DNA of 33,110 bases from Bacillota bacterium (GTDB taxonomy: Bacteria > Bacillota > Limnochordia > JAAZLZ01): contig JAAZLZ010000138.1 of the NCBI GenBank assembly GCA_012799075.1, positions 1-33,110 on the forward strand. Direction: 5' to 3'. Of the stretch, positions 8,823 to 28,214 are shown in pieces (within the stretch, counting starts at the first letter, position 1; every line of letters begins with the position of its first letter). The translations under genes and the position numbers were made by a program. A model generated the notes under the pieces. It was not told the origin of the DNA. It ran no database searches and was given only the letters and a program-made list of their open reading frames with translations.

Positions 8823-8866
8823 CCTAAACCCCCCCTCTGGTTTTGGTTGTACCATCTTTTGGTTAA

Positions 8867-8895: not shown

Positions 8896-8916
8896 TGAAA
8901 ATGAGGTGTGTAGATA

Positions 8917-11094: not shown

Positions 11095-11370
11095 GCTGAA
11101 AGCGATGCGGGGGAGGAGTAGGCAGGCTGGATGGTTCTAGAGAGCCGGGTTAGGTGCAAGCCGGTGCCAAAGGTCTGCTGAAGATGGCCCCCAAGCTGCA
11201 GGCTGAAATCTCAAGTAGGCCGTGCCGGTAGACCCCCTGGGTCGTGCACCCGTTAACGTGCTAGGGTATTGATAAAGTACCCGAAGAGGCCATTGCCGCG
11301 AGGTGATGGCAAAGCAGGGTGGTACCGCGTGTAACCCTTCGCCCCTGTAATGGGGCGGAGGGTTTATTTT
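11095..11370 (+). promoter_or_regulatory. T-box riboswitch leader (Met specifier) controlling metG
   Basis: Conserved T-box sequence AGCAGGGTGGTACCGCG at 11312-11328. Stem I elements are present: an AGAGAG bulge (~11139) and a GGTGCAA distal loop (~11153). The candidate specifier is GAAG-ATG-G with AUG at 11184-11186. A terminator hairpin follows, and the downstream gene is metG. Confidence 0.85.
11333..11370 (+). terminator. Intrinsic terminator (attenuator) of the T-box leader
   Basis: AACCCTTCGCCCC-TGTAAT-GGGGCGGAGGGTT forms a 13-bp stem, followed by TATTTT. Its 5' arm begins two nt downstream of the T-box motif (which ends at 11328), as expected for the antiterminator/terminator alternative. 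Confidence 0.85.
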
Positions 11371-11390
11371 AATTGGAGGAGGCTTTCGCT

Positions 11391-13295
11391 TTGGGTAAGA
11401 ACACCTTCTACATCACCACACCCATCTACTATCCCAGTGATAAGCTGCATATCGGCCATGCTTACACTACCGTGGCTGCCGATGCCATCGCCCGCTACCA
11501 TCGGCTGAACGGCAAAGACGTCTTTTTTCTGACGGGCTCCGATGAGCACGGTCAGAAGATTGAGCGGGTCGCCAAAGAGCGGGGCAAGACCCCCAAAGAG
11601 TATGTGGATGGCATCGTCAAGGGTTTCCAGGATCTTTGGCAGAAGCTGGACATTTCCTACGATGATTTCGTCCGCACCACGGAAGAGCGCCACTACCGGG
11701 TGGTCCAGGACATCTTCCGGGAGATTTACGAGAAGGGGGATATCTACAAAGGGGAGTACAAAGGTTGGTACTGCACCCCTTGTGAGACCTTCTTCCCGGA
11801 AACCCGCCTGGTCGACGGCAACTGCCCTGACTGCGGCAGACCGGTGGAAGTACTGCAGGAGGAAAGCTATTTCTTCCGGATGTCCAAGTACGCGGATCGT
11901 TTGCTGCAGCACATCGAAGCCAACCCGGAGTTCATCCAGCCGACAAGCAGGCGCAATGAAATGGTCCAGTTCATCAAGGGTGGGCTTGAGGATCTGTGCG
12001 TTTCCCGCACCACCTTTGACTGGGGCATCCCTGTACCCATCGAAGAAGGCCACGTTATCTACGTTTGGTTCGATGCCTTGACCAACTACCTGACGGGCAT
12101 CGGCTACTTGGATGACAAAGAGATGTTCCAGAAGTACTGGCCGGCAGATGTCCACTTAGTTGGGAAGGAAATCGTTCGCTTCCACAGCATCATCTGGCCC
12201 ATCATCCTGATGGCCGCGGGTTTGGAATTGCCCAAGAAGGTTTACGGCCATGGCTGGCTGCTCTTTGACAGCGACAAGATGTCCAAATCCAAGGGAAATG
12301 TGGTCGATCCGGTGGTCCTCATCGATCAGTTCGGGGTGGACGCGATTCGCTACTTCCTCCTCCGGGAGATCTCCTTTGGCTCCGACGGCAACTTCTCTTG
12401 GGAGGCCCTCGTTGGCAGGATCAATGCCGATCTGGCCAACGATCTTGGCAACTTAGTCCACCGCAGCTCGGCCATGATGAAGAAATACTATAAAGGCGTT
12501 GTGCCCGAGCCGGGACCGGAGCGCCCCTTAGATGCGGCCCTCCGGGAGGATGCAGCCAATACCCGGAGGAAGCTCGTCTCACTGATGGAGGAGCTGGATT
12601 TGAGCACCGCCCTGGCCACCATCTGGCGGTTCATCGGCTCGGTCAACAAGTACATCGACGAGGCGGCTCCTTGGGCCCTGGCCAGGGATGAGTCCAAAGG
12701 GGACGAGCTGGCCAGGGTCATGTACAACCTAGCCGAGTCCCTCCGGGTGATCTCCCTGTTTATCTACCCCTTTATTCCCTCCACTGCGAAGGAGATTTGG
12801 GCCCGGTTGGGCTTGGATGATGAACTAACGGATCACTTGCTCGGGCAGGCCCGCTGGGGCGAGATGCCGCCAGGCACCGTCATCCGTCCGGGAAGCCCCT
12901 TGTTCCCTCGGATTGAAGACGAAAAACCTCCGGCCAAGGCCCCTGAGGCTCCCCAGAAGGAAGCCATTCCTGAGGTTGCCATCGATGAGTTCGCCCGGAT
13001 GGACATACGCCTTGCCCGGGTCCTCGAGGCGGACAGGATTGCTGGCGCTGACAAGCTGCTGAAGCTCAAGGTGGACTTAGGCGGCGAAGAAAGACAGATC
13101 GTTGCCGGGCTGGCCCAGCATTATCGACCGGAGGAGCTGGTGGGCAAGGATGTGGCCTTGCTGGCCAACCTAAAGCCCACAACGATCCGGGGAGAGCTCT
13201 CCCAGGGGATGGTCTTGGCCGCAGCGGCCAAGGATGGACGGGTGCGAATCCTGACGGTGGATGAGGAGATGCCTGCGGGGTCCAAGATAAGATGA
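11391..13295 (+). CDS. metG: Methionine--tRNA ligase with C-terminal tRNA-binding (EMAP/Trbp111-like) domain
   Basis: PIYYPSDKLHIGHAYT (HIGH motif), KMSKS at ~12280, and a CTPCETF...CPDCG zinc knuckle. The C-terminal FARMDIRLARVLEA...KLLKLKVDLG is a tRNA-binding domain. The TTG at 11391 follows GGAGGAGG at 11375-11382; the track start at 11373 overlaps the RBS. Confidence 0.93.
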   Translation: MGKNTFYITTPIYYPSDKLHIGHAYTTVAADAIARYHRLNGKDVFFLTGSDEHGQKIERVAKERGKTPKEYVDGIVKGFQDLWQKLDISYDDFVRTTEERHYRVVQDIFREIYEKGDIYKGEYKGWYCTPCETFFPETRLVDGNCPDCGRPVEVLQEESYFFRMSKYADRLLQHIEANPEFIQPTSRRNEMVQFIKGGLEDLCVSRTTFDWGIPVPIEEGHVIYVWFDALTNYLTGIGYLDDKEMFQKYWPADVHLVGKEIVRFHSIIWPIILMAAGLELPKKVYGHGWLLFDSDKMSKSKGNVVDPVVLIDQFGVDAIRYFLLREISFGSDGNFSWEALVGRINADLANDLGNLVHRSSAMMKKYYKGVVPEPGPERPLDAALREDAANTRRKLVSLMEELDLSTALATIWRFIGSVNKYIDEAAPWALARDESKGDELARVMYNLAESLRVISLFIYPFIPSTAKEIWARLGLDDELTDHLLGQARWGEMPPGTVIRPGSPLFPRIEDEKPPAKAPEAPQKEAIPEVAIDEFARMDIRLARVLEADRIAGADKLLKLKVDLGGEERQIVAGLAQHYRPEELVGKDVALLANLKPTTIRGELSQGMVLAAAAKDGRVRILTVDEEMPAGSKIR

Positions 13296-16139: not shown

Positions 16140-16168
16140 TTGACACGCTCCGCACCCTCTTATATACT
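16140..16168 (+). promoter_or_regulatory. Sigma-A promoter (TTGACA-N17-TATACT) of the ABC/radical-SAM operon
   Basis: Exact TTGACA at 16140-16145, a 17-nt spacer, then TATACT at 16163-16168. Confidence 0.6.
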
Positions 16169-16248
16169 GACCTTGAACCAGCATTTCTGTTAAAACTTGC
16201 CATAATGACCTTCGACCTGCCCTTTCTAAGGTGCCTTCACTATGAAAC

Positions 16249-16363
16249 TGCAGGCGGCAGGGTATAACTGGAAACGGTTATGCCTCCCGTGTGGAAAGGA
16301 GGTTGGGCCTTGCCTCGCGAAAGTTGGGCCACTTTCCACTCTCCAGCGGAAAGTGGCTTTTGT
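16249..16363 (+). promoter_or_regulatory. Structured 5' leader: overlapping hairpins, an SD-sequestering helix and a terminator-like hairpin (unclassified cis-regulatory RNA candidate)
   Basis: GGTATAAC/GTTATGCC helix at 16261-16284. CCTCC (16283-16287) can pair with the SD GGAGG (16298-16302). GCCACTTTCC-N10-GGAAAGTGGC is a perfect 10-bp stem at 16328-16357, followed by TTTTGTTG. Confidence 0.4.
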
Positions 16364-17167
16364 TGTGCTGCCCCGACCGAATCAGCTCACCCTGCTATTG
16401 AAGTAGACAACCTTTCCTTCTCCTATTTCAGCAGAAAGGTTCTGGATGGCATCAACATTGTCGTCCCTAAAGGAGTGATCTGCGGCCTTCTTGGCCCCAA
16501 CGGCTCGGGCAAGACCACCCTCCTAAGATGCATCAACGGCCTTAGCCGGCCCCTCGAGGGCCAAGTGCTGATCGATGGGCAATCGGTCCAGTCGATGACG
16601 AGGCGAGAAATCGCCCGCAAAGTGAGCGTTATCCCCCAGCAGTCCAACATTGCCTTCCCCTTCAAAGCCATCGAACTGGTGGTAATGGGCAAGTGTCCGG
16701 AGCTTGAGCATTGGCAGTCCCCCGAGGAAGCCGACTATCTCAGGGCCAAAGAAGTTATGGAGAACCTGGGCATTGGACATTTGGCCCACCGCCGGGTGAC
16801 CGAAATCAGCGGCGGGGAAAGGCAGCTGGTCCTCATTGCCCGGGCTATTTTCCAAGGGGCCGACATCATGCTCCTGGATGAACCAACCGCCCACCTGGAT
16901 TACAGGAACCAGTTCGTCATCTTAAGGGTGGTGCAAGAAGTCGCCCGCCAGAAGAATTTGACCGTCCTCATTACTTTGCACAACCCCAACCTTGCCATTT
17001 ACTACTGCAGCCAGGCGGTCCTCCTCAAGGAGGGCCGAATCGTATCCTTGGGCCCCACCAAGGAGGTTTTTTGCGGCAGGGCCTTGAGCGAACTTTATGA
17101 CATGGACATCGCAATCGCAGATGTGGTGAACCGGAAGTGCCAAGTGGTGCTGCCGTCCGATTGGTAA
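16310..17167 (+). CDS. ABC transporter ATP-binding protein, FepC/BtuD (iron-siderophore/cobalamin) type
   Basis: Walker A GPNGSGKTTLL, signature SGGERQ, Walker B IMLLDEPTAHLD and an H-loop TLHNP. The start was assigned to the TTG at 16310 (7 nt after AAAGGAGG) and is uncertain. There is no ATG/GTG/TTG in frame between 16313 and the conserved IEVDNLSFSY N-terminus. Confidence 0.85.
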   Translation: MPRESWATFHSPAESGFCCAAPTESAHPAIEVDNLSFSYFSRKVLDGINIVVPKGVICGLLGPNGSGKTTLLRCINGLSRPLEGQVLIDGQSVQSMTRREIARKVSVIPQQSNIAFPFKAIELVVMGKCPELEHWQSPEEADYLRAKEVMENLGIGHLAHRRVTEISGGERQLVLIARAIFQGADIMLLDEPTAHLDYRNQFVILRVVQEVARQKNLTVLITLHNPNLAIYYCSQAVLLKEGRIVSLGPTKEVFCGRALSELYDMDIAIADVVNRKCQVVLPSDW

Positions 17168-17194
17168 CAACAATAAATCAAAGGAGATGGAAAG

Positions 17195-18193
17195 ATGAAT
17201 AGGAGGCACTTTAACTGGCGTTGTTTGATGGGTCTGCTTTTGATTATGTCCGTGTTTGTTGGCTTTGCGTCGGCGCAAGGAATAGTGGTGGTGGATGGCC
17301 TTGGCCGGGAAATCAAGCTGGACCAGCCCGCCGAGCGGGTCTATATCAGTTATGGCATTGCCGGCACCATGGTGTATGCCCTTGGAGCCCAAGACAAGCT
17401 GGTGGGCATCGATCCTGAGACCAAAAAGACCGCGGTTTACGTGGCCTGGCCCTCGGGGGGCCGAAGCGAGTTCAACGTTGAAGAAGTCATCGCCCTCGAT
17501 GCCGACTTGATCCTGGTCCCCGGCAGAAATCGCCAGCTGGTGGAGAACCTTGAGGCCCATGGACTAAATGTATTTGGCATTGTGGCAGAAGATTTAAGTC
17601 AGCTGACAGATTCCATGGTCAACCTGGGCAAAGCCCTGGGCAAGGAAGACCGGGCCCAGCAATTCGTAGGCTATTACGATGCTATGGTCCAGCGGATCCA
17701 GCAAAAGACGGCCAACCTGGAAGAATCCCAGCGGCCGAAGGTCTACATGGTGGGCTCAAATCTACTGAGCACCTGCGGCGGGGAAATGTACCAGCACTAC
17801 TTGATCACCTTGGCAGGGGGCCGGAATGTGGTCGGCGCTGAGGGCGCTGGGGCCGAGCGCTGGTTTGAGATCTCCCCTGAGCAAATCGTCAAATGGAACC
17901 CGGATATCATCGTCGTCGTCCAGTATGCCGCGGATACAACCCCCCAAGACATCCTGGCCGATGAGCGCTTTGCCGGGGTGAACGCGGTCCAAAACAACCA
18001 GGTATTTTGGTTCCCCTCCAATTTGATTCCCTGGGACTATCCTTCGCCCCAAGCGATCCTTGGCATCGCCTGGATGGCCAATAAGCTCCATCCCGATCTA
18101 TTTGCCGATCTGGATGTGATGGAGGAGGCCGACGGGTTCTTCCAGATGCTCTATGGCAAGACCTACAGCGAACTTGGCGGCCTCCTTGACTAG
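17195..18193 (+). CDS. ABC transporter substrate-binding protein, FecB/BtuF (cluster A-II, periplasmic binding protein 2) type: SBP1
   Basis: Signal peptide ...LLIMSVFVGFASA-QG. Typical fold landmarks are LVGID, DLILVPG, VFWFPSN and WDYPSPQ. It is a paralogue of the 20381-21406 product. Confidence 0.85.
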   Translation: MNRRHFNWRCLMGLLLIMSVFVGFASAQGIVVVDGLGREIKLDQPAERVYISYGIAGTMVYALGAQDKLVGIDPETKKTAVYVAWPSGGRSEFNVEEVIALDADLILVPGRNRQLVENLEAHGLNVFGIVAEDLSQLTDSMVNLGKALGKEDRAQQFVGYYDAMVQRIQQKTANLEESQRPKVYMVGSNLLSTCGGEMYQHYLITLAGGRNVVGAEGAGAERWFEISPEQIVKWNPDIIVVVQYAADTTPQDILADERFAGVNAVQNNQVFWFPSNLIPWDYPSPQAILGIAWMANKLHPDLFADLDVMEEADGFFQMLYGKTYSELGGLLD

Positions 18194-18204
18194 GGGGTGC
18201 AGGC

Positions 18205-19224
18205 ATGATTTGCAACTACTGCGAATGGAGATGTGACCTGGGGGAGGGCCGCCCTGGGGTGTGCCAGATGTATATTCAGCGGGGGGACCGCATCGAGGAA
18301 AGGCACCCCCACCATTACACCACCTACGCGGCGGTGCACATCGAATCGGTGCCCTTTTTCCACGCCTATCCAGGCAGTCGATCCTTGCAGATCGGAAGCC
18401 GCGGCTGCAACTTCGACTGCCATTACTGCAGCAATGCCTATGTGGCCAAGAGCCTTCCCGATGAGGTCTATACTTTTCATTTGAGCCCGGAGCGGATTGT
18501 GGATGTTGCCAGGAAGACTGGCTGTCACAACATCGTCTTTGCCGTCAATGAACCCATCGTATCCTTCCAATCGCTGATGGAGCTGGCCGACAAGGCAAAG
18601 GCGGCCGGACTGCCCCTTGGCTGTATGACCAACGGCTACATGACCGAGGAAGCTGCCGATGCCCTGGCTGAAAGCTGTGCCTTTGTCAATGTGAGTTTAA
18701 AAGGCTTTAGCCAGGAATTCTACGCCCGCTGCACCGGCATCCCCGATTTCGAGCCGGTGCTGCGAAACATAGGCAAGCTGACAGCTAAGACCCATGTGGA
18801 GGTCACAACGCCAATCATCCAGGATGTCAACGATCAAGACATCATGCCCATCGCGGAGTTTCTCGCGTCGGTCAACGCCAACATCCCCTGGCACGTATTT
18901 CGCCTCCTGCCCGAATACAAGATGAAGGACGAAGCTTATCCCAGCATCGAGCTGATCAATGACAAACTGGAGGAGGCGAGAAGGCTCCTTCCCTACATCT
19001 ATTTCAGCAACTTCGTCGGCTCCACCTGGGTCAGCACCTATTGTCCAAGCTGCGGCGAGAAAGTCATCGAGCGGTTGAACCTAGGGGGATGCGGCGGCAA
19101 AATGATTGATTTCCGCCTTGATGGGGCCAACCGGTGTTTGAACTGTCAAAGCCAAATCCCAATTCAGGGGCGATACGTCAAATGGAACTCGGGAGATGAA
19201 GGGCATGAACTATGCGGTGCTTGA
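18205..19224 (+). CDS. Radical SAM enzyme, COG1180 / AmmeMemoRadiSam-like (PflA-related) family
   Basis: CNFDCHYC is a CxxxCxxC cluster motif, preceded by PFFHAYPGSRSLQIGSRG. An N-terminal Cys-rich segment reads CNYCEWRCDLGEGRPGVC. The C-terminal zinc-ribbon-like segment CPSCGEKVIER...CLNC matches the layout I recall for TIGR04337-type enzymes. Confidence 0.8.
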   Translation: MICNYCEWRCDLGEGRPGVCQMYIQRGDRIEERHPHHYTTYAAVHIESVPFFHAYPGSRSLQIGSRGCNFDCHYCSNAYVAKSLPDEVYTFHLSPERIVDVARKTGCHNIVFAVNEPIVSFQSLMELADKAKAAGLPLGCMTNGYMTEEAADALAESCAFVNVSLKGFSQEFYARCTGIPDFEPVLRNIGKLTAKTHVEVTTPIIQDVNDQDIMPIAEFLASVNANIPWHVFRLLPEYKMKDEAYPSIELINDKLEEARRLLPYIYFSNFVGSTWVSTYCPSCGEKVIERLNLGGCGGKMIDFRLDGANRCLNCQSQIPIQGRYVKWNSGDEGHELCGA

Positions 19225-20362
19225 CGTTCGGGAGTGGGACATCACCATCGATCTAGAAAGGGGAACGCCTATCACCGGTGAGATCCCCGGCCCGGAGAAG
19301 CGAAGGCTCCAGCTTGCCAGGCGGCTCATCAAGGACCATCCATATCCGGGGGACTTCGCCCTGGAAAGCATGGAATGGGTGACCGATGGAGCTTTGAGGC
19401 TATGGAAAGCCTATGATCCGACCTTCATGTTCATCAGCTATGCCCAGCCCCAGATATTAGGCGGGGTCGTGGACATGACCACGGCCGACTGGCGCCGTCT
19501 GATCGACCGGCAATTCCAAAATGTGGACCGCTTCCTGGCCGAATCGGGCTTCACCCCCATTATCATCGGGCTGGGGGACCTGGTTCCCATCGAAGGTTAT
19601 GTTGACCTGTCAAGTTGGGACAGCTACGTTAGGAAGCCCGATCGGCTTTATGCGGGTCTTTATGGCCTGGAGGATGAGGATGACTTTAGTCGGTTGACCA
19701 ACACCCCCGGTGTGGAGCGACTCATCAGCAAGGAGGATTTCATTGCCAACTTCGGGGCCGGCAAGGACTTTGCCCGCCGGCTCCCCGATTACCTGGTCAT
19801 AGCCAAGGAAGGCCATACCTTCAAGACCATGGGCGGCTCCCCCCGGATGGGACTGAAGACGGTGGCCAGGAATTGGCGCATCCCCGTTTATACGCCACTG
19901 GATGATGCCATTCAGTCAATAGTCGACGTTAACGAAGTGGTCTTGCGGAATGCTGGGAAGGAGAGAATTGCCCTCATTGTCTTAGATGGCATAGGAATCG
20001 AAGACTTCCAAGGCCCCCATGAACTTTGCGCCAACAACTTCCATTGGTATACCTACTCCCAAGGGGATGACAGCTATCTAGCCTTGGGCACGGGGAAGCA
20101 CTTTCAATTCAATGATTATCCCCCCGGCTGGCTGAGCTTTGTTGAGGACCCCGAGGACAAAAGATGTCCCCACGATGGATACATCACCAGACTAGTCCCT
20201 GACAGCATCGGCAGCGTCCTCAGAAAGCAGGGGATCTCAAGCGGCGCCGTCGGCAGCAGGAGCACTTTTACTCACCTGGCCAGCGGCGCGGACATCTGTG
20301 TGGAATGCTGCTGCTGTGATTTGTACAACTATGGGACGAAGGCGGTTATCTACACTACTTAG
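19205..20362 (+). CDS. Conserved hypothetical cytoplasmic protein, unrecognised family (paralogue A)
   Basis: 385 aa with no signal peptide or transmembrane segment. It aligns along its full length with the 22504-23652 product, sharing DVREWD, PYPGD.ALES, RIPVYTPL, LDGIG..DF, YPPG, SGADI and LYNYGT. The start was set at ATG 19205 by alignment with the paralogue (MNYAVLDVREWD vs MSYGLIDVREWD). It overlaps the radical SAM gene by 20 nt. Confidence 0.75.
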   Translation: MNYAVLDVREWDITIDLERGTPITGEIPGPEKRRLQLARRLIKDHPYPGDFALESMEWVTDGALRLWKAYDPTFMFISYAQPQILGGVVDMTTADWRRLIDRQFQNVDRFLAESGFTPIIIGLGDLVPIEGYVDLSSWDSYVRKPDRLYAGLYGLEDEDDFSRLTNTPGVERLISKEDFIANFGAGKDFARRLPDYLVIAKEGHTFKTMGGSPRMGLKTVARNWRIPVYTPLDDAIQSIVDVNEVVLRNAGKERIALIVLDGIGIEDFQGPHELCANNFHWYTYSQGDDSYLALGTGKHFQFNDYPPGWLSFVEDPEDKRCPHDGYITRLVPDSIGSVLRKQGISSGAVGSRSTFTHLASGADICVECCCCDLYNYGTKAVIYTT

Positions 20363-20380
20363 ACAAAGGTGGCATAGGAA

Positions 20381-21406
20381 ATGCAAAGACATGTTAAGAA
20401 GTCGGTTTTGCTAGCGGTCGTCCTTGCTCTGTTGGCTGCCTGTTCGGCCTGGGCGGCAGATGTGGTGGTGACCGATGGGCTTGGCCGAGAGGTGGAAATC
20501 ACGCTCCCGGTCAATCGGATTGTCACGAACTATGGCATTGCCACCCATATGCTCTTTGCCCTCGGCGCGGAGGATCGACTAGTCGGCATCGACATGCCCT
20601 CCCAACAGGACAAGTTCTTCAATAGCCTGCGGCCGGAGGTTGGGACCATGGCCAGCGCGGGAAGTCCCAGGGAGCTCAATATCGAGCAGGCCATCGCCCT
20701 AAGGCCGGATTTGCTCTTGGTCCCGGGACGAAACCGCGACCTCATCGAAGGCCTTGAAGCCCGGGGTCTGACGGGTGTTTTCGGTGTTATCGCCGAAGAC
20801 CTGGATCAGCTAAGGACCACTATCGCTAGTTTAGGCAAGGCCCTGGGAGAAGAGGACAAGGCAGAGAAGTTCATCAAGTACTACGATGAAACCTTGGCCT
20901 GCATTGCGGACAGGACAAAGGATCTGGCCGAAGAGGAAAAGCCCCTGGTGTATATTGCCGGCCGGGACGGCCTGCTGTCAACCTGCGGGAAAGACATGTA
21001 TCAACACTCGGTGATTCAAATGGCGGGGGGCAGAAATGCAGGCGGCGACGATAGCCTTGGCGGGGCAGCCCAAGGCTGGTTTAAGGTCTCCCCTGAGCAG
21101 CTGATCAACTGGGACCCTGATTACATCCTGGTTGTCCGCTATGGAGTTGAAGTCACCCCCGAGCAGATTCTGTCCGATCCTCGCTTCCAAGGGGTCAGTG
21201 CAGTCCGCAACGGGCGCGTCCTTTGGTTCCCGTCGAATCTGAACTCATGGGACTTTCCGGCTCCCCAGGCCGTCTTGGGGGTCCAGTGGCTGGCCCGGCT
21301 CCTCCATCCTGACAAATTTGCCGATATGGATCTACAGAAAGATGTGGACGAGTTCTTCCGCACCTTCTACGGGAAGTCCTTTACCGAACTAGGCGGCGAA
21401 ATGTAA
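20381..21406 (+). CDS. ABC transporter substrate-binding protein, FecB/BtuF type: SBP2
   Basis: Signal peptide MQRHVKKSVLLAVVLALLAACSAWA. It is collinear with SBP1 and roughly half the residues look identical by eye (DGLGRE, LVGID, LLLVPGRNRDL, STCGKDMYQH, WFPSNL). Confidence 0.85.
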   Translation: MQRHVKKSVLLAVVLALLAACSAWAADVVVTDGLGREVEITLPVNRIVTNYGIATHMLFALGAEDRLVGIDMPSQQDKFFNSLRPEVGTMASAGSPRELNIEQAIALRPDLLLVPGRNRDLIEGLEARGLTGVFGVIAEDLDQLRTTIASLGKALGEEDKAEKFIKYYDETLACIADRTKDLAEEEKPLVYIAGRDGLLSTCGKDMYQHSVIQMAGGRNAGGDDSLGGAAQGWFKVSPEQLINWDPDYILVVRYGVEVTPEQILSDPRFQGVSAVRNGRVLWFPSNLNSWDFPAPQAVLGVQWLARLLHPDKFADMDLQKDVDEFFRTFYGKSFTELGGEM

Positions 21407-21416
21407 GTGCTCTTCC

Positions 21417-21438
21417 GGGGTCCGTCACTTCGGACCCC
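21417..21438 (+). other. Intercistronic GC-rich hairpin (GGGGTCCG-TCACTT-CGGACCCC) between SBP2 and the permease gene
   Basis: Perfect 8-bp stem read directly from the sequence. There is no U-run afterwards, so it is more likely an mRNA-stability or processing element than a terminator. Confidence 0.4.
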
Positions 21439-21468
21439 GATTGAATTTATGTTCAGGTGGTTGAAGGA

Positions 21469-22485
21469 ATGAAGCGTAATCATGCAATAGCAGCGGCCGC
21501 GATCCTGCTCCTTGCCTGTTTTCTCCTGTCCATGTCCATCGGCCGATATCCTCTGCAGGCAAGGAAGGTAGTGGAACTGATCAAGCTCAAGGTGCAGCTT
21601 CGTGAACCTGATAAGGACATGTTCAATGATTATGTGGTTTTTTGGTCCATCAGGCTGCCCCGGGTCCTAATGGCCTCCTCCGTGGGGGCTGTCCTTGCCA
21701 TTGCGGGTACGGTCTTTCAAGGGCTTTTCCGGAACCCCTTGGTTTCTCCCGATATCCTCGGAGTGTCTGCGGGAGCTGGCTTTGGGGCTGGCCTTGCCAT
21801 CCTGCTCTTTGGCAAATCCGCCGCAGCCATTCAGATTTCGGCCTTTGCCTTCGGTCTCTTAGCGGTATCGGCCGCATATGGGATGAGCCGCTATGCCCGG
21901 AGCCACTCGGTGACCACTCTGGTTTTGTCGGGGGTCATTGTCTCCGCGTTGTTTTCCGCGGGGCTTTCTTTTCTCAAGTATGTGGCCGACCCTTACGAAC
22001 AGCTGCCGGCCATTGTCTTTTGGACCATGGGCAGCTTCAGCAACACCCTGTGGGCTGACTTGGCCAAGACCTTTCCCGCGATGGCTTTCTGCATCGTGGT
22101 CCTGTTTGTCCTCCGTTGGAAGCTCAATGTCTTGACCCTGGGCGATGATGATGCCATGGCGCTGGGAATAGACGTTGCCAAGGCCCGAGGAGTCTACATC
22201 TTCCTTGCCACATTGATGGTGGCATCATCGGTCTCATCCTGCGGGACCATTGGCTGGGTGGGGCTGGTGGTCCCCCACATGGCCCGACTGATTGTGGGCC
22301 CCGATCATACCATCCTGCTGCCCTTTGCCGGCCTTCTCGGTGCAAGCTTTATGGTCCTGATGGACACCCTCGCCCGGAGCATCACCGGCGGCGAGATACC
22401 CATCAGCATCATGACCTCACTCATTGGAGCTCCGTTCCTCGGCTATCTCATGCTGAAGCAAGACAGGGACCAATGGGGAAGTTGA
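21469..22485 (+). CDS. ABC transporter permease, FecCD/BtuC family
   Basis: About 10 predicted transmembrane segments. Family motifs are LPRVLMA..VGA.LA.AG..FQ...RNPL..P..LGVS.GA and a C-terminal GAPFLGYLM. Start is the ATG at 21469 (or the GTG at 21457). Confidence 0.88.
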   Translation: MKRNHAIAAAAILLLACFLLSMSIGRYPLQARKVVELIKLKVQLREPDKDMFNDYVVFWSIRLPRVLMASSVGAVLAIAGTVFQGLFRNPLVSPDILGVSAGAGFGAGLAILLFGKSAAAIQISAFAFGLLAVSAAYGMSRYARSHSVTTLVLSGVIVSALFSAGLSFLKYVADPYEQLPAIVFWTMGSFSNTLWADLAKTFPAMAFCIVVLFVLRWKLNVLTLGDDDAMALGIDVAKARGVYIFLATLMVASSVSSCGTIGWVGLVVPHMARLIVGPDHTILLPFAGLLGASFMVLMDTLARSITGGEIPISIMTSLIGAPFLGYLMLKQDRDQWGS

Positions 22486-22503
22486 TTTAAGGGAGATGAA
22501 AAC

Positions 22504-23652
22504 ATGAGCTACGGCTTGATCGATGTGAGGGAGTGGGATGTTTTCGTCGATTTGACCACCGGGGAGCCGGTAGATCCCCCCGGTCTTGAAATTGAGGGTT
22601 TGGTTCGCGGAATCGTCGGTCGGAACCCCTACCCGGGGGATCTTGCCCTTGAAAGCATCGATTGGGTGACCAGGCTTGCCCTTGAACTCGATCGGGCCTA
22701 CCAGCCCCAATTCATGATGCTCACCTACGCGAACCAGTACTTCCTATCCCGCTATGAAGGGCTTTCGCCCTCCCTTTGGAAGGACACCACCAGCCGCATC
22801 TTTGCCCAGGTCGATGGGTTTGTCCGCACAACCGGGTTCATCCCCATAGTTGTGGGCCTGGGCAGGATGATTCCCCTGCGCCAGTACATCGATCTTAACG
22901 ACCTAGACGGGCTGGTCGTCGCCGGCGGCGGCTCCGCTCATTATGCGGGGATCTTTGCACCCAGCGAGCGGGATCTTGCACGGCTTGGGAGAATGCCGGG
23001 GATCGAGAAAGTAGTGGCCAGGGATGATTTTCTTCGGGAGTTCGGGGGAAGCCCCGACTTCATCAGGCGTTTTCCGGACTATCTTTTGGCAGCCGAGGAA
23101 GGCTCTACTTTCAAGGCTTATGGGGGCATGGCCAGGCCCATGTACAAAATTCCCGCCAAAGACAGCCGCATCCCGGTGTATACTCCCCTATTGGGACATC
23201 TGGTCTCCTTGACTGACATAAAGGGCCTAATCATGGAGGCGATTGCCACGAATCGGGTCGCCCTGATCCTCTTGGAGGGGATCGGCGCTGGGGACTTCCA
23301 GCTCGACTACCGCCTGTGTTCCAACCAGGCCAACTGGTTCACCTACAACCATGGTGAAAGCCACTACCTGGCCATCACTACCGGGAGACATCTCCAGTAC
23401 AATCACTATCCGCCGGGCTATAAGTACTACATCGACGATCACGAAACAAGGGCAAATCCCTATGCTGGGCCTTTCGTTGACACCCCTTCCCACACCATCG
23501 GTCAGGAGCTTAGGCAAAGGGGCCTCAAAAGCGCGGCGGTGGGCAATAGGAGCGTCCTCACCCATATGACTAGCGGCGCCGACATTGCGATTGAATGTCT
23601 GGCCCGGGGCCTGTATAATTACGGCACTCTAGCGGCCTTCAACGTTGACTAA
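22504..23652 (+). CDS. Conserved hypothetical cytoplasmic protein, unrecognised family (paralogue B)
   Basis: 382 aa, full-length paralogue of the 19205-20362 product. RBS AGGGAGA lies upstream of the ATG. No signal peptide or transmembrane segment. Confidence 0.75.
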   Translation: MSYGLIDVREWDVFVDLTTGEPVDPPGLEIEGLVRGIVGRNPYPGDLALESIDWVTRLALELDRAYQPQFMMLTYANQYFLSRYEGLSPSLWKDTTSRIFAQVDGFVRTTGFIPIVVGLGRMIPLRQYIDLNDLDGLVVAGGGSAHYAGIFAPSERDLARLGRMPGIEKVVARDDFLREFGGSPDFIRRFPDYLLAAEEGSTFKAYGGMARPMYKIPAKDSRIPVYTPLLGHLVSLTDIKGLIMEAIATNRVALILLEGIGAGDFQLDYRLCSNQANWFTYNHGESHYLAITTGRHLQYNHYPPGYKYYIDDHETRANPYAGPFVDTPSHTIGQELRQRGLKSAAVGNRSVLTHMTSGADIAIECLARGLYNYGTLAAFNVD

Positions 23653-23682: not shown

Positions 23683-23711
23683 TTGACAGCAGGGAAACCG
23701 TCCTGTATACT
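23683..23711 (+). promoter_or_regulatory. Sigma-A promoter (TTGACA-N17-TATACT) for the tRNA pair
   Basis: Exact TTGACA at 23683-23688, a 17-nt spacer, then TATACT at 23706-23711, which is 14 nt upstream of tRNA-Lys. Confidence 0.6.
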
Positions 23712-23724
23712 ATGTTTTGCGAAT

Positions 23725-23799
23725 GGGTCATTAGCTCAGTGGTAGAGCACCGGACTTTTAATCCGGGTGTCGGAGGTTCGAGTCCTCCATGACTCACCA
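23725..23799 (+). tRNA. tRNA-Lys (anticodon UUU), CCA encoded
   Basis: Folded by hand. The acceptor is GGGTCAT/ATGACTC and the D-arm is AGCTCAGTGGTAGAGC. The anticodon stem CCGGA/TCCGG carries loop CTTTTAA, and the T-arm is GGAGGTTCGAGTCCTCC. Terminal ACCA. Confidence 0.92.
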
Positions 23800-23800
23800 T

Positions 23801-23876
23801 GCCCCCATCGTCTAGCGGCCTAGGACACCGCCCTTTCACGGCGAAGGCAGGGGTTCAAATCCCCTTGGGGGTACCA
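23801..23876 (+). tRNA. tRNA-Glu (anticodon UUC), CCA encoded
   Basis: GCCCCCATCGTCTAGCGGCCTAGGACACCGCCCTTTCACGGCG... closely parallels the canonical bacterial tRNA-Glu. The anticodon loop is CTTTCAC and the T-arm is GGGGTTCAAATCCCC. Terminal ACCA. Confidence 0.92.
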
Positions 23877-23887
23877 TGAAAATCTTG

Positions 23888-23914
23888 CCACCGACTGGGT
23901 TCGGTGGTTTTTTC
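23888..23914 (+). terminator. Rho-independent terminator after the tRNA pair
   Basis: CCACCGA-CTGGGT-TCGGTGG followed by TTTTTTC. Confidence 0.8.
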
Positions 23915-23984: not shown

Positions 23985-24947
23985 ATGGCACCCATCATCG
24001 AGGCCAACAACTTACGGAAGAGTTTTGGCGATGTGGAAGCAGTGGCCGACATCTCCTTCCGCATTGAAAAAGGAGAGCTGTTTGGCTTCCTCGGGCCTAA
24101 CGGGGCCGGCAAGACGACCACCATCAAGATGCTAACGGGCCTTGCTCGGCCGGATGGGGGGACCCTTTACCTTGGCGGCATCGACTGTACCGACGATCCG
24201 AAGGCGGCCCAGCACCTAATTGGAGTTGTTCCTGATGAAAGCAATCTCTATCCAGAGCTGACCGGGCTGGAGAACCTTTGTTTTTGCGCCGCCCTGTATG
24301 GGATGGACAAGTCCCGTCGTCAAGCCCGGGCCCGTGAGCTTTTGGATTCCTTTGGCCTTGCCCAAGCAGCCGACCGCAAGTTCGGCTCCTATTCCAAAGG
24401 GATGAAACGCAAGCTTGCTATTGCCGCGGGCATCATCCATCGACCGGCAATCCTCTTCTTAGATGAGCCCACCACGGGAATTGATGTCCTAAGCGCCCGG
24501 CAGATCCGCCAGCTGATCGCCGAGCTGCACCGCTTAGGGACCACCATCTTCCTCACCACCCATTACATCGAGGAGGCAGAAAGGCTGTGTGAACGGATTG
24601 CGTTCATCGTATCAGGGCGTATTGTCCGCATCGACAGCATCGAGCATCTCCTCCAGTCGGTGCAGGGCAAACACATGATGGAAATATCGTGGGCAAATCC
24701 CCTTGCCCATGGGGAAAACCTCGCGCAGGCCTTCCCTGAACTGACAGTTGAGACTTTGCTGCCGGGAACCATCCGGATCGAATCGGATGAGCCCATCCAT
24801 GTGGGGGTCCTGGTTCGCTTCCTAGAGGAGCAAGGCGGCCACGTCCTTGAGGCCAGGAGGATCCAGCCCTCCTTGGAGGATGTGTTTATCAACATTACCG
24901 GAATCAAGGGTGAAAGCATGCGAAACGAGGGAGGAAGGGGAGCATGA
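23985..24947 (+). CDS. ABC transporter ATP-binding protein (ABC-2/DrrA-like exporter subfamily)
   Basis: Walker A GPNGAGKTTT, signature YSKGMKRKL, Walker B ILFLDEPTTGID, an H-loop TTHY and a C-terminal accessory domain. RBS AGGAGGG. Confidence 0.88.
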   Translation: MAPIIEANNLRKSFGDVEAVADISFRIEKGELFGFLGPNGAGKTTTIKMLTGLARPDGGTLYLGGIDCTDDPKAAQHLIGVVPDESNLYPELTGLENLCFCAALYGMDKSRRQARARELLDSFGLAQAADRKFGSYSKGMKRKLAIAAGIIHRPAILFLDEPTTGIDVLSARQIRQLIAELHRLGTTIFLTTHYIEEAERLCERIAFIVSGRIVRIDSIEHLLQSVQGKHMMEISWANPLAHGENLAQAFPELTVETLLPGTIRIESDEPIHVGVLVRFLEEQGGHVLEARRIQPSLEDVFINITGIKGESMRNEGGRGA

Positions 24948-25681
24948 AGGGTTGGATCGCTTTCTGGAACATCTTCATCAAGGACATTCGCACCTATTAT
25001 TTGAAGCCCCCGAATATCAGCTGGGGACTGATTTTCCCCCTGTCCTGGACCGGCATGTTCTTCATCAGATCGGGAGCCGGACTGGAAAGCATCCCGGAAG
25101 TTTTGCCTGGAGTGACCGCCCTGTCCGTCTTGTTTGGCACCACCTCCATGTTGGCGGTGACCATCACTTTTGAAAAGAAGAATCGGACCTTTGAGCGATT
25201 GCTTCTTGCACCCATCTCCCTGGAACTGTTGATGTTGGCAAAAACCGCGGGGGCCATCTTGTTTGGCATCGCCAACGGATTCGCACCCCTTATCCTGGCT
25301 GGATTTGCCGCCGATCTGTCCGGCCTAGATCCGGTGATCTTCTTTCTTGGTTTGGTGATGGTAGCCGTCGTTTCAGCCTTCCTCGGGCTGTTCGTCGCTG
25401 TGGCCGTCCAGGAGGTTTTCGAGGCCCAAACCCTCTCCAACTTCTTTCGCTTCCCCATGATGTTCTTGTGCGGATTCTTCTTTCCCATCGAAAAGCTTCC
25501 TGTTTTCCTCAGGCCTTTGTCTTATGTTTTGCCCATGACTTATGGGGTGGACATCCTCCGGGGGGCAGTCCACGGGGGGAATAAGATGGCCTATGGGCTA
25601 AGCTTTCTTGTCCTAGGCGCATTTTGTGTGGGCCTCTTCTTCAAGAGCATCGGCAACGTCAGGCGCAATTGGATTATCTAG
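24944..25681 (+). CDS. ABC-2 type transporter permease
   Basis: 245 aa with six hydrophobic segments. The start overlaps the upstream ATPase stop in an ATGA, the usual arrangement for ABC-2 pairs. Confidence 0.8.
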   Translation: MKGWIAFWNIFIKDIRTYYLKPPNISWGLIFPLSWTGMFFIRSGAGLESIPEVLPGVTALSVLFGTTSMLAVTITFEKKNRTFERLLLAPISLELLMLAKTAGAILFGIANGFAPLILAGFAADLSGLDPVIFFLGLVMVAVVSAFLGLFVAVAVQEVFEAQTLSNFFRFPMMFLCGFFFPIEKLPVFLRPLSYVLPMTYGVDILRGAVHGGNKMAYGLSFLVLGAFCVGLFFKSIGNVRRNWII

Positions 25682-25855: not shown

Positions 25856-26380
25856 ATGGACAGGGAGCTTTGGGAAAGGGCTGTTAAGTTTCATGGACAC
25901 CGGTGTCCGGGGCTGGCCATCGGGTTTAAGGCCTGCGAGGCGGCCAAGGAAAAGATGGGACTTGAGTTTTCGCCGGATGAGCAGATTGTCTGCGTCACGG
26001 AGAACGACGCCTGTGGGGTGGATGCGATCCAGCTCATTACAGGCTGTACCTTAGGCAAGGGCAACCTGCTGTATAAAGACAGGGGGAAGATGGCCTACAG
26101 TTTCTTCAACCGAAGCAGCGGGGACAGCCTCCGGATGATCCTAAAGCCGCTGCCGGAGGAAATGGATCGGGAAGATCGCCTGGAATACCTGCTAAATGCG
26201 CCTGCCGGTGAGATTTTCCGGTTCAGCACGCCGAATTTCCCGGTGCCGGAAAGGGCACGAATCTTGAAAACTGTCATTTGCGAAGTCTGTGGCGAGGGTG
26301 CAGCGGAGCACAAAATCCGGCTGAAGGAAGGCAAGAAAATCTGTCTGGATTGCTTCAAGGAGTATTCCAGGGGCTGGTAA
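25856..26380 (+). CDS. FmdE/FwdE-domain protein with C-terminal zinc ribbon
   Basis: The N-terminus AVKFHGHRCPGLAIGFKA is the FmdE-family signature. Followed by ENDACGVDAIQ..TGCT.GKGNL and a C-terminal CEVCGE...CLDC ribbon. Confidence 0.85.
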   Translation: MDRELWERAVKFHGHRCPGLAIGFKACEAAKEKMGLEFSPDEQIVCVTENDACGVDAIQLITGCTLGKGNLLYKDRGKMAYSFFNRSSGDSLRMILKPLPEEMDREDRLEYLLNAPAGEIFRFSTPNFPVPERARILKTVICEVCGEGAAEHKIRLKEGKKICLDCFKEYSRGW

Positions 26381-26393
26381 AAGGAGATGCGAG

Positions 26394-27440
26394 ATGGACA
26401 ACTACCGACGCTATACGGCCAACAAGGGCCTGGCGACGTTGGCCTTGGTGCTGCTGATCGGCATCGTCGCCATGATTGCCCTCAATGCCGGTTCAATGGA
26501 CTTAAATCCGCATCAGGTTATTCGCTCTATCATCGGCAAAGGCGCCGATGTGGCCGATATCGTCATCTGGCAGATCCGCTTGCCAAGGATCTTGGCAGCC
26601 ATCATCGCGGGAGCCGGATTGTCAGTGGCCGGTTGCGTAATGCAAAATAACCTAAGAAACCCGTTGGCCTCACCTTCCACCCTGGGAATAGCTAATGCAG
26701 CAGCCTTTGGAGCCAACATGGCCATCATCGTCTTTGGCGCTGGCAGCATCCGCAGCACCGGAGCCGATGCCGTCAACATATCCAACCCCTATTCCGTTGC
26801 CTTCTCGGCGTTTATTTGGGCGATGGCGGCCGCCTTGATCATCTTGCTCTTGGCCAGGACCCGCGGCTTCTCACCGGAGGCCATTGTCCTAGCCGGTGTA
26901 GCCTTAAGCTCACTCTTTTCGGCAGGCACCATCTTGATCCAGTACTTTGCCCAGGATGTGCAAGTTGCGGCCGCGGTTTTCTGGACCTTTGGCGACCTGG
27001 GAAGGGCGGCGTGGAATGAGGTCCTTATTCTATCCCTTATTGTCGCCTCGGCACTTATCTATTTCATGCTCCGCAGGTGGGATTACAATGCCCTCGATAG
27101 CGGTGAAGAGACTGCCAAAAGTCTTGGCGTCAATGTTGAAAGGGTCCGCCTAGGGGGGATGATGGCCTCATCCCTCATCACCGGGGCAGCTGTATCCTTT
27201 TTGGGCATCATCGGTTTCATTGGCCTAGTTGCTCCCCACATGATGCGGAGGGTGCTGGGGGGCGATCACAGACAGTTGATTCCAGCATCGGCCCTCGCAG
27301 GTGCGCTGCTGCTGTTGGTTTCCGACACGGTAGCAAGAACCATAATTGCACCGGTCGTTCTTCCCGTCGGGGCGATCACCTCTTTTTTTGGTGCGCCGCT
27401 ATTTCTTTACCTACTGGCAAGGGGGTATGAGCAGAAGTGA
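26394..27440 (+). CDS. ABC transporter permease, FecCD/BtuC family (second system)
   Basis: IRLPRILAAIIAGAGLSVAGCVMQNNLRNPLASPSTLGI, VAPHMMRR and a GAPLFLYLL C-terminus. RBS AAAGGAG lies 8 nt upstream. Confidence 0.9.
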   Translation: MDNYRRYTANKGLATLALVLLIGIVAMIALNAGSMDLNPHQVIRSIIGKGADVADIVIWQIRLPRILAAIIAGAGLSVAGCVMQNNLRNPLASPSTLGIANAAAFGANMAIIVFGAGSIRSTGADAVNISNPYSVAFSAFIWAMAAALIILLLARTRGFSPEAIVLAGVALSSLFSAGTILIQYFAQDVQVAAAVFWTFGDLGRAAWNEVLILSLIVASALIYFMLRRWDYNALDSGEETAKSLGVNVERVRLGGMMASSLITGAAVSFLGIIGFIGLVAPHMMRRVLGGDHRQLIPASALAGALLLLVSDTVARTIIAPVVLPVGAITSFFGAPLFLYLLARGYEQK

Positions 27441-28189: not shown

Positions 28190-28214
28190 ATTATAATAAG
28201 GGAGTGGGTTAGCA

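Follow-up and report, generated by a model that had tools for sequence, protein, structure and literature searches.

What does a seven-gene operon that interleaves a type II ABC importer with a radical SAM (rSAM) enzyme and two proteins of unrecognised family bring into the cell, and what do its cytoplasmic enzymes do there? The operon lies in a 33,110 bp stretch of Bacillota DNA (contig JAAZLZ010000138.1, hereafter the window). An initial annotation proposed that a metallophore- or tetrapyrrole-like ligand is imported and then processed anaerobically by radical chemistry. The observation itself is confirmed, as all seven open reading frames are present on the forward strand in the order described, behind a consensus promoter-like site. 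The interpretation is only partly supported, since the operon is preceded by a Moco/Tuco riboswitch that the annotation did not identify, and is better read as a tungsten/molybdenum (W/Mo) acquisition system. The features of the locus are as follows.

16140–16168 (+), sigma-70-type promoter-like site, TTGACA-17 nt-TATACT
16198–16317 (+), Moco/Tuco riboswitch aptamer (RF01055), the variant lacking stem P3
16326–16367 (+), terminator-like hairpin plus U-tract, probable expression platform of the riboswitch
16310–17167 (+), ABC importer ATPase (longest ORF from ATG 16280, likely start TTG 16310)
17195–18193 (+), substrate-binding protein 1 (SBP1), MolA-like, with a signal peptide
18205–19224 (+), radical SAM enzyme with a PFL-activase-like core and Cys-rich N- and C-terminal extensions
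19205–20362 (+), unknown A, 385 aa from the second Met (first possible start at 19196), member of a new family, here called U
20381–21406 (+), substrate-binding protein 2 (SBP2), MolA-like lipoprotein
21416–21439 (+), GC-rich hairpin between the SBP2 and permease genes
21457–22485 (+), type II ABC importer permease, MolB-like
22504–23652 (+), unknown B, 382 aa, member of family U, with a predicted, distant alkaline-phosphatase-superfamily fold

The genes form one tightly packed unit. Intergenic gaps are 27, 11, 18, 50 and 18 nt, the rSAM and unknown A genes overlap by 20–29 nt, and the ATPase and permease genes are 4.29 kb apart. The promoter-like site matches the consensus at 11 of 12 positions and lies about 30 nt upstream of the aptamer, although such consensus sites are not rarer here than in shuffled sequence (5 found against 3.9 expected). 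The hairpin between SBP2 and the permease gene has nine pairs, eight of them G-C, with a weak T tail, and may be a partial terminator or an mRNA-stabilising element. No terminator follows unknown B, which is instead followed by a second promoter-like site (23683), tRNA-Lys, tRNA-Glu and a terminator (23887–23908).

The riboswitch matches the full-length RF01055 model at 74.5 bits (gathering score 36; E = 2e-16), with the P3 positions deleted. No cobalamin riboswitch or other family reaches threshold in the leader. The 3′ strand of stem P1 contains the ribosome-binding site GGAAAGGAGG (16293–16302), and the ATPase most likely starts 7 nt after it, at TTG 16310. A gene call on a near-identical contig (L091; L numbers denote homologous loci and their contigs) gives the matching 285-aa product. 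Downstream, a 12-pair stem (16326–16359; dG −20.2 kcal/mol, z −2.3) is followed by UUUUGUUGUG. GGAAAG in the P1 3′ strand can pair with CUUUCC in the 5′ arm of this hairpin, which would act as an anti-terminator, as inferred from the sequence. P3-less variants correlate with tungsten-cofactor genes (PMC2408646), but this is a correlation rather than a biochemical result.

Profile searches of Pfam and NCBIfam confirm ABC_tran (1.5e-33), Peripla_BP_2 (1.2e-29 for SBP1 and 5e-27 for SBP2), Radical_SAM and FecCD (1.5e-88). Among solved structures, the best relative of the permease is MolB (HI1471; E = 3.5e-75, 256.5 bits), against about 181–182 bits for FhuB and HmuU (182.3 at most) and 140.4 for BtuC. 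As a control, the window's other FecCD permease prefers HmuU. For both binding proteins, which are 50% identical to each other, the best relative with a known ligand is MolA (HI_1472), at E = 5.6e-20 for SBP1 and, over the full length, at E = 1.3e-29 for SBP2. SBP1 has an N-terminal hydrophobic segment at residues 6–36, while SBP2 has the lipobox LAAC. PDB matches of the ATPase do not discriminate among families (FhuC 150.6 bits, MolC/HI1470 134.1 bits).

The radical SAM enzyme carries its CX3CX2C motif at C68/C72/C75, with conserved cysteines at C3/C6/C10/C20 and C280/C283/C311/C314. Its best NCBIfam hit is the AmmeMemoRadiSam model TIGR04337 (168.6 bits, below the cut-off of 220). In a confident AF2 model (pLDDT 92.5), the best fold match is pyruvate formate-lyase activating enzyme (PFL-AE; 3c8f, TM 0.72 on the target).

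The two unknowns, 42% identical to each other, have no Pfam, NCBIfam or PDB sequence hit. They form a small closed family with 140 representatives among 1.84 billion proteins, occurring in 138 of 185,579 species genomes, about 140 strictly anaerobic species including a methanogen. Unknown A carries a CVECCCC motif, and its orthologues in L004 and L010 keep the run of four cysteines. The model of unknown B is confident (pLDDT 91.8, pTM 0.93), and its best Foldseek hit is phosphonoacetate hydrolase (1ei6; E = 3.9e-6), followed by ENPP6 and ENPP4. This match is weak in TM-score (0.37), however, and the fold assignment comes without a confirmed metal or nucleophile site. Invariant residues include H296, H354, D360, E364 and G374.

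The association of these genes is strongly conserved. The rSAM gene lies directly upstream of U in 76 of 77 loci, an importer is nearby in 67 of 82, and seven rSAM–U fusion proteins exist. Three of three look-ups seeded from the rSAM also found U downstream, including in the archaeon Methanofollis. Assignment of the unknowns to a well-characterised family, or a lack of conserved association, would have counted against the initial annotation, and neither was found. No paper describing the module was found.

The pair travels with four importer types: MolBC-like, ECF, ModABC and MOT1. It follows Mop-ModABC in L047 and L053 (ModA above the NCBIfam cut-off) and a MOT1 molybdate transporter in L018 and L021, while in L002 it stands alone behind its own riboswitch. 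The same riboswitch motif sits 5′ of the homologous operon, or directly 5′ of rSAM–U, in 20 of 82 distinct loci (Bacillota, Chloroflexota and one Geobacter), and all ten examined in detail lack P3. The module therefore follows W/Mo status, and not one transporter type or a FecCD-type organic ligand.

The explanation favoured here, which we consider somewhat more likely than not, is a W/Mo acquisition operon that is switched off when the pterin cofactor is plentiful. In this view, transcription starts at the promoter near 16140 and runs into the riboswitch. With ligand bound, stem P1 would hide the ribosome-binding site and the downstream hairpin could terminate transcription, whereas without ligand the seven genes would be expressed. 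The ATPase, the single MolB-like permease and the two MolA-like binding proteins would form a MolBC-A-type importer for tungstate or molybdate, or a close derivative. The radical SAM enzyme and the two U paralogues would form a cytoplasmic two-part module that is independent of the importer type and acts after uptake. In the preferred reading, U binds or turns over the tetrahedral oxyanion, or an ester, thio or nucleotide derivative of it, and passes the metal towards cofactor synthesis. The alkaline-phosphatase-superfamily fold binds tetrahedral oxyanions. The radical SAM protein would be U's dedicated partner, either maturing or activating U or working with it as one enzyme. One rSAM serves two U paralogues here, and a lone U sits behind its own riboswitch in L087. 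The riboswitch, the relatives of the importer, the fold (as a model-based match), the gene linkage, the fusions and the taxonomic range rest directly on the analysis, and the link to the metal is well supported, whereas the cargo, its binding and transport, the direction of regulation and all of the chemistry of the rSAM–U module, including any radical chemistry on an imported ligand, which remains possible, are inferred.

Some observations sit less easily with this explanation. MolA binds molybdate only weakly (about 100 uM), so that even the true cargo of the reference importer is debated. TonB-dependent receptors with ExbBD-TonB in 27 of 82 loci, and ECF-type transporters in 11, suggest a larger or scarcer cargo than a free oxyanion, and the methyltransferases, DUF364 and FmdE found in many loci are left unexplained. 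No riboswitch was found in most deltaproteobacterial and Negativicutes loci, where the W/Mo link rests on Mop/ModABC/TupA/MOT1 neighbours in some loci and on FmdE only in others. In 34 of 82 loci, no W/Mo marker was seen within the sequence available.

Salvage of the pterin cofactor or a precursor is an unlikely alternative, though the best placed of the rivals. The importer, with a TonB receptor or an ECF transporter in other lineages, would take up molybdopterin, cPMP, Moco/Tuco or a breakdown product, and rSAM–U would convert it into a usable intermediate, for example by cleaving a dinucleotide or phosphate ester and repairing the pterin. This would parallel B12-riboswitch-controlled BtuB-BtuFCD. 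Control of a type II importer by a cofactor riboswitch and the TonB receptors fit this reading, as does the resemblance of U to nucleotide pyrophosphatases/phosphodiesterases. Desulfovibrio-type loci carry an ECF module whose 192-aa polytopic membrane protein looks like an S component, and ECF transporters typically carry vitamins. FmdE, a suspected cofactor-handling protein, is linked in 19 of 82 loci. However, the permease and binding proteins are specifically MolB- and MolA-like, and the pair also sits behind ModABC or MOT1, which carry only the oxyanion, with no other importer within 8 kb. The free cofactor is also very labile, and its uptake is not known in bacteria (PMC9026282).

Almost equally doubtful is a W/Mo metallophore system, in which rSAM–U, with the methyltransferase, DUF364 and FmdE genes seen elsewhere, would synthesise or dismantle a small chelator that is exported by an efflux pump and taken back up loaded with metal, as in siderophore clusters. 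The layout of TonB receptor, ExbBD-TonB and FecCD-type importer resembles siderophore loci, exporters lie next to the operon (ABC-2 at 23985–25681 in the window and MatE in L004), and accessory methyltransferases occur in 19 of 82 loci. Against this, no recognisable scaffold-building enzymes such as NRPS, NIS or opine synthases were seen in the loci inspected, the minimal conserved unit is only rSAM–U, which occurs with plain ModABC or MOT1 or alone, and monoderm loci, including the window, have no accessory biosynthetic genes.

It is less likely still that rSAM–U is an alternative enzyme of molybdopterin biosynthesis, replacing or supplementing MoaA/MoaC and merely co-transcribed with transport genes, as moa and mod genes often are. 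Moco riboswitches classically control moaA operons (PMC2408646), MoaA is a radical SAM enzyme with weak NCBIfam and fold similarity to the one found here, and some database records name the rSAM “molybdenum cofactor biosynthesis protein”. A phosphodiesterase-like partner could in principle form the cyclic phosphate of cPMP. However, MoaA models score only 50–51 bits against cut-offs of 231–325, the closest fold is PFL-AE rather than MoaA, and the C-terminal Cys pattern is CxxC...CxxC, a ribbon-like pattern. The family's few carrier lineages are also expected to have canonical MoaA/MoaC.

A cofactor-independent back-up enzyme, replacing a W/Mo-dependent reaction when cofactor is scarce, much as B12 riboswitches control B12-independent isozymes, is very unlikely. 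The pair is placed to be repressed by the riboswitch on its own in L002 and L012, and a PFL-activase-like rSAM, together with an invariant Gly in a low-confidence hairpin loop near the C-terminus of U, would fit a radical-bearing protein. Yet the pair is almost always in an operon with uptake genes, no substrate-related catabolic genes are conserved nearby, and U shows no glycyl-radical motif or fold. The siderophore, haem or corrinoid reading of the initial annotation is the weakest and already largely refuted: although the importer families are those of iron-chelate, haem and B12 systems, FeoB and a second FecCD system lie nearby and ChuW/HutW offer a precedent for anaerobic haem degradation by radical SAM enzymes, the leader is a Moco/Tuco riboswitch, MolB and MolA are the closest solved relatives, ModABC, MOT1, Mop and TupA are neighbours in other genomes, and the rSAM is not HemN/ChuW-like.

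Among known systems, the importer is closest to MolBC-A (HI1470/HI1471/HI1472) of Haemophilus influenzae, a molybdate/tungstate importer, with which it shares a single permease gene and a single ATPase gene, as in a B2C2 transporter. It differs in having two binding proteins instead of one, three interleaved cytoplasmic genes and a riboswitch. The leader resembles those of Moco/Tuco riboswitch regulons (moa, mod, tup and W/Mo-enzyme operons; Regulski et al., 2008, PMC2408646), including the ribosome-binding site in P1, the terminator-like platform and the P3-less subclass tied to tungsten-cofactor genes. The genes it precedes here are not among the functions named in the parts of that study consulted, and family U is not named in any source searched.

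The anaerobic sulfatase-maturing enzyme and its sulfatase (AtsB/anSME and AtsA) are apparently the only established partnership of a radical SAM enzyme with an alkaline-phosphatase-superfamily protein encoded next to it. One maturase can serve several hydrolases, and the substrates are esters of a tetrahedral oxyanion. However, the rSAM found here has no SPASM domain, and U, whose modification would be conjectural, has no C/S-x-P/A-x-R motif and no Sulfatase family hit. The rSAM core is structurally closest to PFL-AE (3c8f, 3cb8), with COG1180-type sequence relatives and, as in that system, one rSAM serving two partner paralogues. The activase family models nevertheless score far below their cut-offs, and U is a 380-aa protein with an alkaline-phosphatase-like predicted fold and no RVxG motif, rather than the ten-stranded barrel of glycyl-radical enzymes. 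The AmmeMemoRadiSam system, likewise of unknown function, is the nearest named sequence family for the rSAM (1.7e-49, residues 2–324), but no AMMECR1 or Memo homologue appears in any locus inspected, the partner is U and the context is W/Mo. B12-riboswitch-controlled BtuB-BtuFCD uptake follows the same logic as that inferred here, with a cofactor-sensing riboswitch repressing a type II ABC importer together with a TonB-dependent receptor in diderm relatives, although here the riboswitch class is different, the permease is nearer to MolB than to BtuC, and an extra enzyme module is present.

The seven closely packed open reading frames between 16140 and 23652 were recovered on the forward strand in the order proposed by the initial annotation, so that its observation holds:
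17167 (end; likely start 16310), + strand, ABC importer ATPase
17195-18193, + strand, substrate-binding protein 1 (SBP1)
18205-19224, + strand, radical SAM enzyme (rSAM)
19196/19205-20362, + strand, unknown A
20381-21406, + strand, substrate-binding protein 2 (SBP2)
21457-22485, + strand, FecCD permease
22504-23652, + strand, unknown B

The genes are separated by gaps of 11-50 nt, and the rSAM and unknown A genes overlap. Searches of Pfam and NCBIfam confirm the family assignments and return no match for the two unknowns, which share 42% identity, while the two binding proteins share 50%. A promoter-like site (TTGACA-17-TATACT) lies at 16140-16168, although such consensus matches are no rarer here than in shuffled sequence. 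In the 50-nt gap between SBP2 and the permease gene, a strong GC hairpin (21416-21439, + strand; 9 pairs, 8 of them G-C) with a weak T tail may set the ratio of binding protein to transporter.

The surroundings are ordinary Bacillota core genes, namely tmk, holB, a PSP1-domain gene, rsmI, metG and tatD. A T-box leader (11096-11349, + strand; 106.6 bits) precedes the methionyl-tRNA synthetase gene (11373-13295), as is ordinary for Bacillota, and a 234-aa open reading frame with no Pfam hit (9718-10422, - strand) sits among the housekeeping genes. Directly after unknown B (23683-23908, + strand) come a promoter-like site with the same two hexamers as the operon promoter, tRNA-Lys(UUU), tRNA-Glu(UUC) and a terminator-like hairpin. 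No terminator separates the operon from the tRNA genes, and read-through is therefore possible. An ABC-2-type exporter (ATPase plus permease; 23985-25681, + strand) lies next to the operon, and a MatE efflux gene occupies the same position in L004, one of the related loci (designated L) that carry the unknown family. This may be relevant if a chelator is exported. A second type II ABC importer follows (25856-29288, + strand), comprising an FmdE-domain protein with a zinc ribbon, a FecCD permease, an ATPase and a binding protein, with no riboswitch detected in front of it. A FeoB ferrous-iron transporter gene (30803-32830, - strand) lies at the edge of the window, on the opposite strand to the operon, and nothing links it to the operon.

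An Rfam scan of the whole window places a full-length Moco/Tuco riboswitch aptamer (RF01055), which the initial annotation had missed, at 16198-16317, exactly between the promoter-like site and the first gene. It begins 30 nt after that site and scores 74.5 bits against a gathering score of 36 (E 2e-16, model positions 1-135). Stem P3 is deleted in the alignment, and P3-less variants have been reported to go with tungsten-cofactor genes (Regulski et al., PMC2408646). The 3′ strand of stem P1 contains the ribosome-binding site GGAAAGGAGG, 7 nt before an in-frame TTG at 16310 that is the likely true start of the ATPase. The window matches a 113-kb metagenome contig, and a gene call on this near-identical contig gives the matching 285-aa product. 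Eight nucleotides after the aptamer there is a 12-pair hairpin (dG -20.2 kcal/mol) followed by a U-tract, UUUUGUUGUG. The layout fits an OFF switch acting on translation, transcription or both, although the function of this expression platform is inferred.

The importer resembles the molybdate/tungstate type. The best solved relative of the permease is HI1471 (MolB) at 256.5 bits, compared with 182.3 for FhuB, 180.9 for HmuU and 140.4 for BtuC. As an internal control, the permease of the second importer (26394-27440) prefers HmuU (200.4 bits) over MolB (142.0 bits), and is thus HmuU/FhuB-like rather than MolB-like. Both binding proteins align over their full length with HI_1472 (MolA), which is the third-best PDB hit and the best with a known ligand (E 1.3e-29 for SBP2 and 5.6e-20 for SBP1). 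All 66 FecCD genes in related loci are closer to the operon's permease than to the second one. The ATPase does not discriminate among families and was uninformative.

The two unknowns belong to a small, closed family, here called U. Pfam, NCBIfam and PDB sequence searches, including a PDB profile search with a 34-sequence alignment, gave nothing meaningful. A word-indexed search of 5.8 billion proteins found 60 clusters, all labelled hypothetical, and a full profile search of 1.84 billion representatives found only the family itself, with 140 hits and no outgroup. The proteins have no signal peptide or membrane segment. The AlphaFold model of unknown B is confident (pLDDT 91.8, pTM 0.93), and its best Foldseek match in the PDB is phosphonoacetate hydrolase (1ei6; E 3.9e-6, probability 1.0), although with a TM-score of only 0.37 over 249 columns, followed by ENPP6 and ENPP4. 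This is a remote resemblance to the alkaline phosphatase superfamily, not membership shown by sequence. Conserved acidic, His, Arg, Ser/Thr and Asn residues would suit a metal/oxyanion site, and D7, E258, T/S293, H296, H354, D360 and E364 are candidate ligands on the basis of conservation alone. Near its C-terminus, unknown A carries CVECCCC, a run of four cysteines, where the rest of the family has IEC(F/L)AR, including a nearly invariant Arg. The run is conserved in the three species with the seven-gene layout (window, 19205-20362; L004, 6536-7708; L010, 3381-4553), and could be a thiophilic metal site or mark a diverged function.

The rSAM gene is closely linked to family U. In seven gene-neighbourhood look-ups it was immediately upstream of U every time. 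A scan of 185,579 species genomes with a 14-sequence alignment found 138 carriers, and all the named ones are strict anaerobes: Syntrophomonas, Syntrophaceticus, Sporomusa, Geobacter, Desulfuromonas, Desulfovibrio, Solidesulfovibrio, Desulfotignum, Smithella, Syntrophorhabdaceae, Anaerolineae and Holophaga. Across 82 distinct loci, the rSAM is directly upstream of U in 76 of the 77 that have upstream sequence. Three look-ups seeded from the rSAM also found U downstream, one of them in the methanogen Methanofollis formosanus, whose U is 41% identical. In this archaeal locus (L089) the binding protein (6711-8921) is 736 aa long with two Peripla_BP_2 stretches, a tandem fusion that echoes the two separate SBP genes of the window, and long SBP genes also occur in the Chloroflexota loci L022 and L059, so that two binding domains may be a recurring feature. 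Two adjacent 270-aa amino-acid-kinase-family genes nearby weakly resemble UMP kinase, and might speculatively be molybdenum-storage-protein-like. The seven-gene order of the window recurs in two other Bacillota MAGs (L004/L009 and L010).

Seven family representatives are single rSAM-U fusion proteins of about 725 aa. In one of these, P0067, the alignment to the window's rSAM stops at residue 258, and the region that would hold the rSAM's invariant C-terminal CxxC...CxxC (residues about 262-345) does not align. The Cys ribbon may be a docking element that is dispensable once the two proteins are fused, but this is speculation.

The rSAM-U pair follows tungsten/molybdenum (W/Mo) genes rather than one type of transporter. 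A covariance model of the riboswitch found 28 copies in 1.23 Mb of related loci, nearly all on the operon strand and 5′ of it, covering 20 of the 82 distinct loci. Rfam confirmed them at gathering score, and all nine further leaders examined in detail lack P3. A possible exception is the Aceticella autotrophica locus (L001), which holds two Moco-type riboswitches (5881-6025 and 12110-12232): one precedes SBP-FecCD-ATPase-rSAM-U-DUF364 and may keep a short P3-like hairpin, while a P3-less one precedes a ModABC-like transporter. In L002/L014 the riboswitch directly precedes rSAM-U with no transporter, in L012 the importer and rSAM-U each have their own copy, and in L087 a lone U has one. In Geobacter (L053) and Syntrophorhabdaceae (L047) the order is Mop-ModA-ModB-ModC-rSAM-U, with ModA above the NCBIfam cut-off. 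A MOT1 molybdate transporter precedes the pair in L018 and L021, and L008 has two TupA-like genes nearby. Desulfovibrio-type loci use a TonB receptor plus an ECF transporter whose 192-aa protein is polytopic, while Negativicutes add FmdE, a methyltransferase, ExbBD-TonB and a TonB receptor.

Table. Features associated with rSAM-U, as numbers of loci out of 82 distinct loci.
Any importer: 67
FecCD-type importer: 56
ECF-type importer: 11
TonB-dependent receptor: 27
FmdE: 19
Methyltransferase: 19
DUF364: 14
Direct W/Mo marker (riboswitch, Mod, MOT1 or Mop): 31
W/Mo marker, counting FmdE as well: 48

The radical SAM enzyme matches PF04055 (1.1e-22), and its CX3CX2C motif (C68/C72/C75) is invariant. 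Four N-terminal cysteines and a C-terminal CxxC...CxxC are also conserved. The confident predicted model (pLDDT 92.5) has a partial-barrel radical SAM fold, with a core closest to pyruvate formate-lyase activating enzyme (PFL-AE), followed by NifB, viperin and MoaA.

The locus is best read as a W/Mo acquisition operon with a MolBC-A-like importer. The riboswitch, the kinship of the importer and the linkage of rSAM to U rest directly on the searches, whereas repression by the cofactor, binding and transport of molybdate or tungstate, and everything concerning the chemistry of rSAM-U are inferred. The interpretation in the initial annotation was only partly supported, as the unrecognised family and its association with the rSAM held, but its frame of siderophore, haem or cobalamin uptake did not. 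As the module also occurs on its own and behind ModABC and MOT1, which carry only oxyanions, the most economical reading is that it acts inside the cell on the metal oxyanion or on its hand-over to the cofactor pathway, and not on a special organic ligand. The remotely alkaline-phosphatase-like predicted fold of U, the PFL-activase-like rSAM core, and the presence of one rSAM for two U paralogues here and of a lone U elsewhere lead us to favour U as the oxyanion-handling component, with the rSAM as its maturase, activase or partner.

Four rival explanations could also account for the module. The first two are salvage of the pterin cofactor and a W/Mo metallophore, and both are kept alive by the TonB receptors, ECF modules, methyltransferases, DUF364 and FmdE, which the simple oxyanion picture does not explain. 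An alternative enzyme of molybdopterin synthesis is also possible, although as a replacement of MoaA the rSAM was rejected, since MoaA models score only 50-51 bits against cut-offs of 231-325. The fourth is a cofactor-independent back-up enzyme. A glycyl-radical role for U is retained only as a minor possibility: G374 is invariant at a hairpin tip, but the preceding residues have low model confidence, and there is neither an RVxG motif nor a glycyl-radical fold. An iron, haem or B12 cargo is contradicted by the similarity to MolB and MolA and by the leader, where RF01055 is the only element found in the Rfam scan and no cobalamin riboswitch is present.

A more far-reaching possibility, held only tentatively, is that the pair performs a so far undescribed, radical-SAM-dependent step in tungsten (or molybdenum) handling in strict anaerobes. 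For example, an alkaline-phosphatase-fold protein, matured or radical-activated by its own PFL-activase-like partner, could capture tungstate or a thio-, ester- or nucleotide-linked form of it and commit the metal to the pterin cofactor. Apart from MoaA, this would be the first radical SAM enzyme in the mononuclear W/Mo cofactor pathway, and a candidate answer to how cells treat tungsten separately from molybdenum.

Tungsten and molybdenum enzymes drive formate, aldehyde, aromatic-ring and CO2 metabolism in syntrophs, acetogens, sulfate and metal reducers, and methanogens. Uptake (Mod, Tup, Wtp, MolBC) and cofactor assembly are thought to be largely mapped, but how cells obtain the metals in sulfidic, metal-poor habitats, and how they tell tungsten from molybdenum, is not settled. 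The conserved two-gene module, which sits inside W/Mo uptake operons and under tungsten-type riboswitches, occurs in about 140 anaerobic species, spans Bacteria and at least one archaeon, and is sometimes a single fused protein. It gives a defined, testable candidate for a missing step, as well as a functional foothold for a protein family with no annotation and for the poorly understood AmmeMemoRadiSam-like branch of radical SAM enzymes. It also suggests that many genes annotated as “iron complex transport” in anaerobes are really W/Mo systems.

Literature searches on Moco riboswitches with radical SAM enzymes, AmmeMemoRadiSam, AMMECR1/Memo, DUF364/FmdE, TonB with tungsten, and MolA found no description of this module, and a 2018 comparative-genomics paper on Mo utilisation mentions neither riboswitches nor MolBC. 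Database names for the proteins are “hypothetical protein” and “pyruvate formate lyase activating enzyme”. Riboswitch-controlled W/Mo uptake operons are an established arrangement, and what is new here is that such an operon carries an uncharacterised protein family and an uncharacterised radical SAM branch.

The nearest named family of the rSAM is AmmeMemoRadiSam (TIGR04337), but its score of 168.6 bits is below the cut-off of 220, and no AMMECR1 or Memo gene appears in the window or in any related locus. The proposed relationship between rSAM and U is an analogy to the pairs formed by anaerobic sulfatase-maturing enzyme (anSME) with sulfatase and by PFL-AE with PFL, and the criteria for both pairs fail. 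In comparison with anSME-sulfatase, no SPASM domain was detected in the rSAM by Pfam or NCBIfam, and the C/S-x-P/A-x-R motif is absent from the U alignment. In comparison with PFL-AE-PFL, the glycyl-radical activase models score 51.7 bits against 174 (TIGR02493) and 32.2 against 232 (TIGR02494), and U has no Gly_radical or PFL-like hit, so that only the predicted fold of the rSAM core resembles PFL-AE. The module may therefore work like these pairs, without being one of them.
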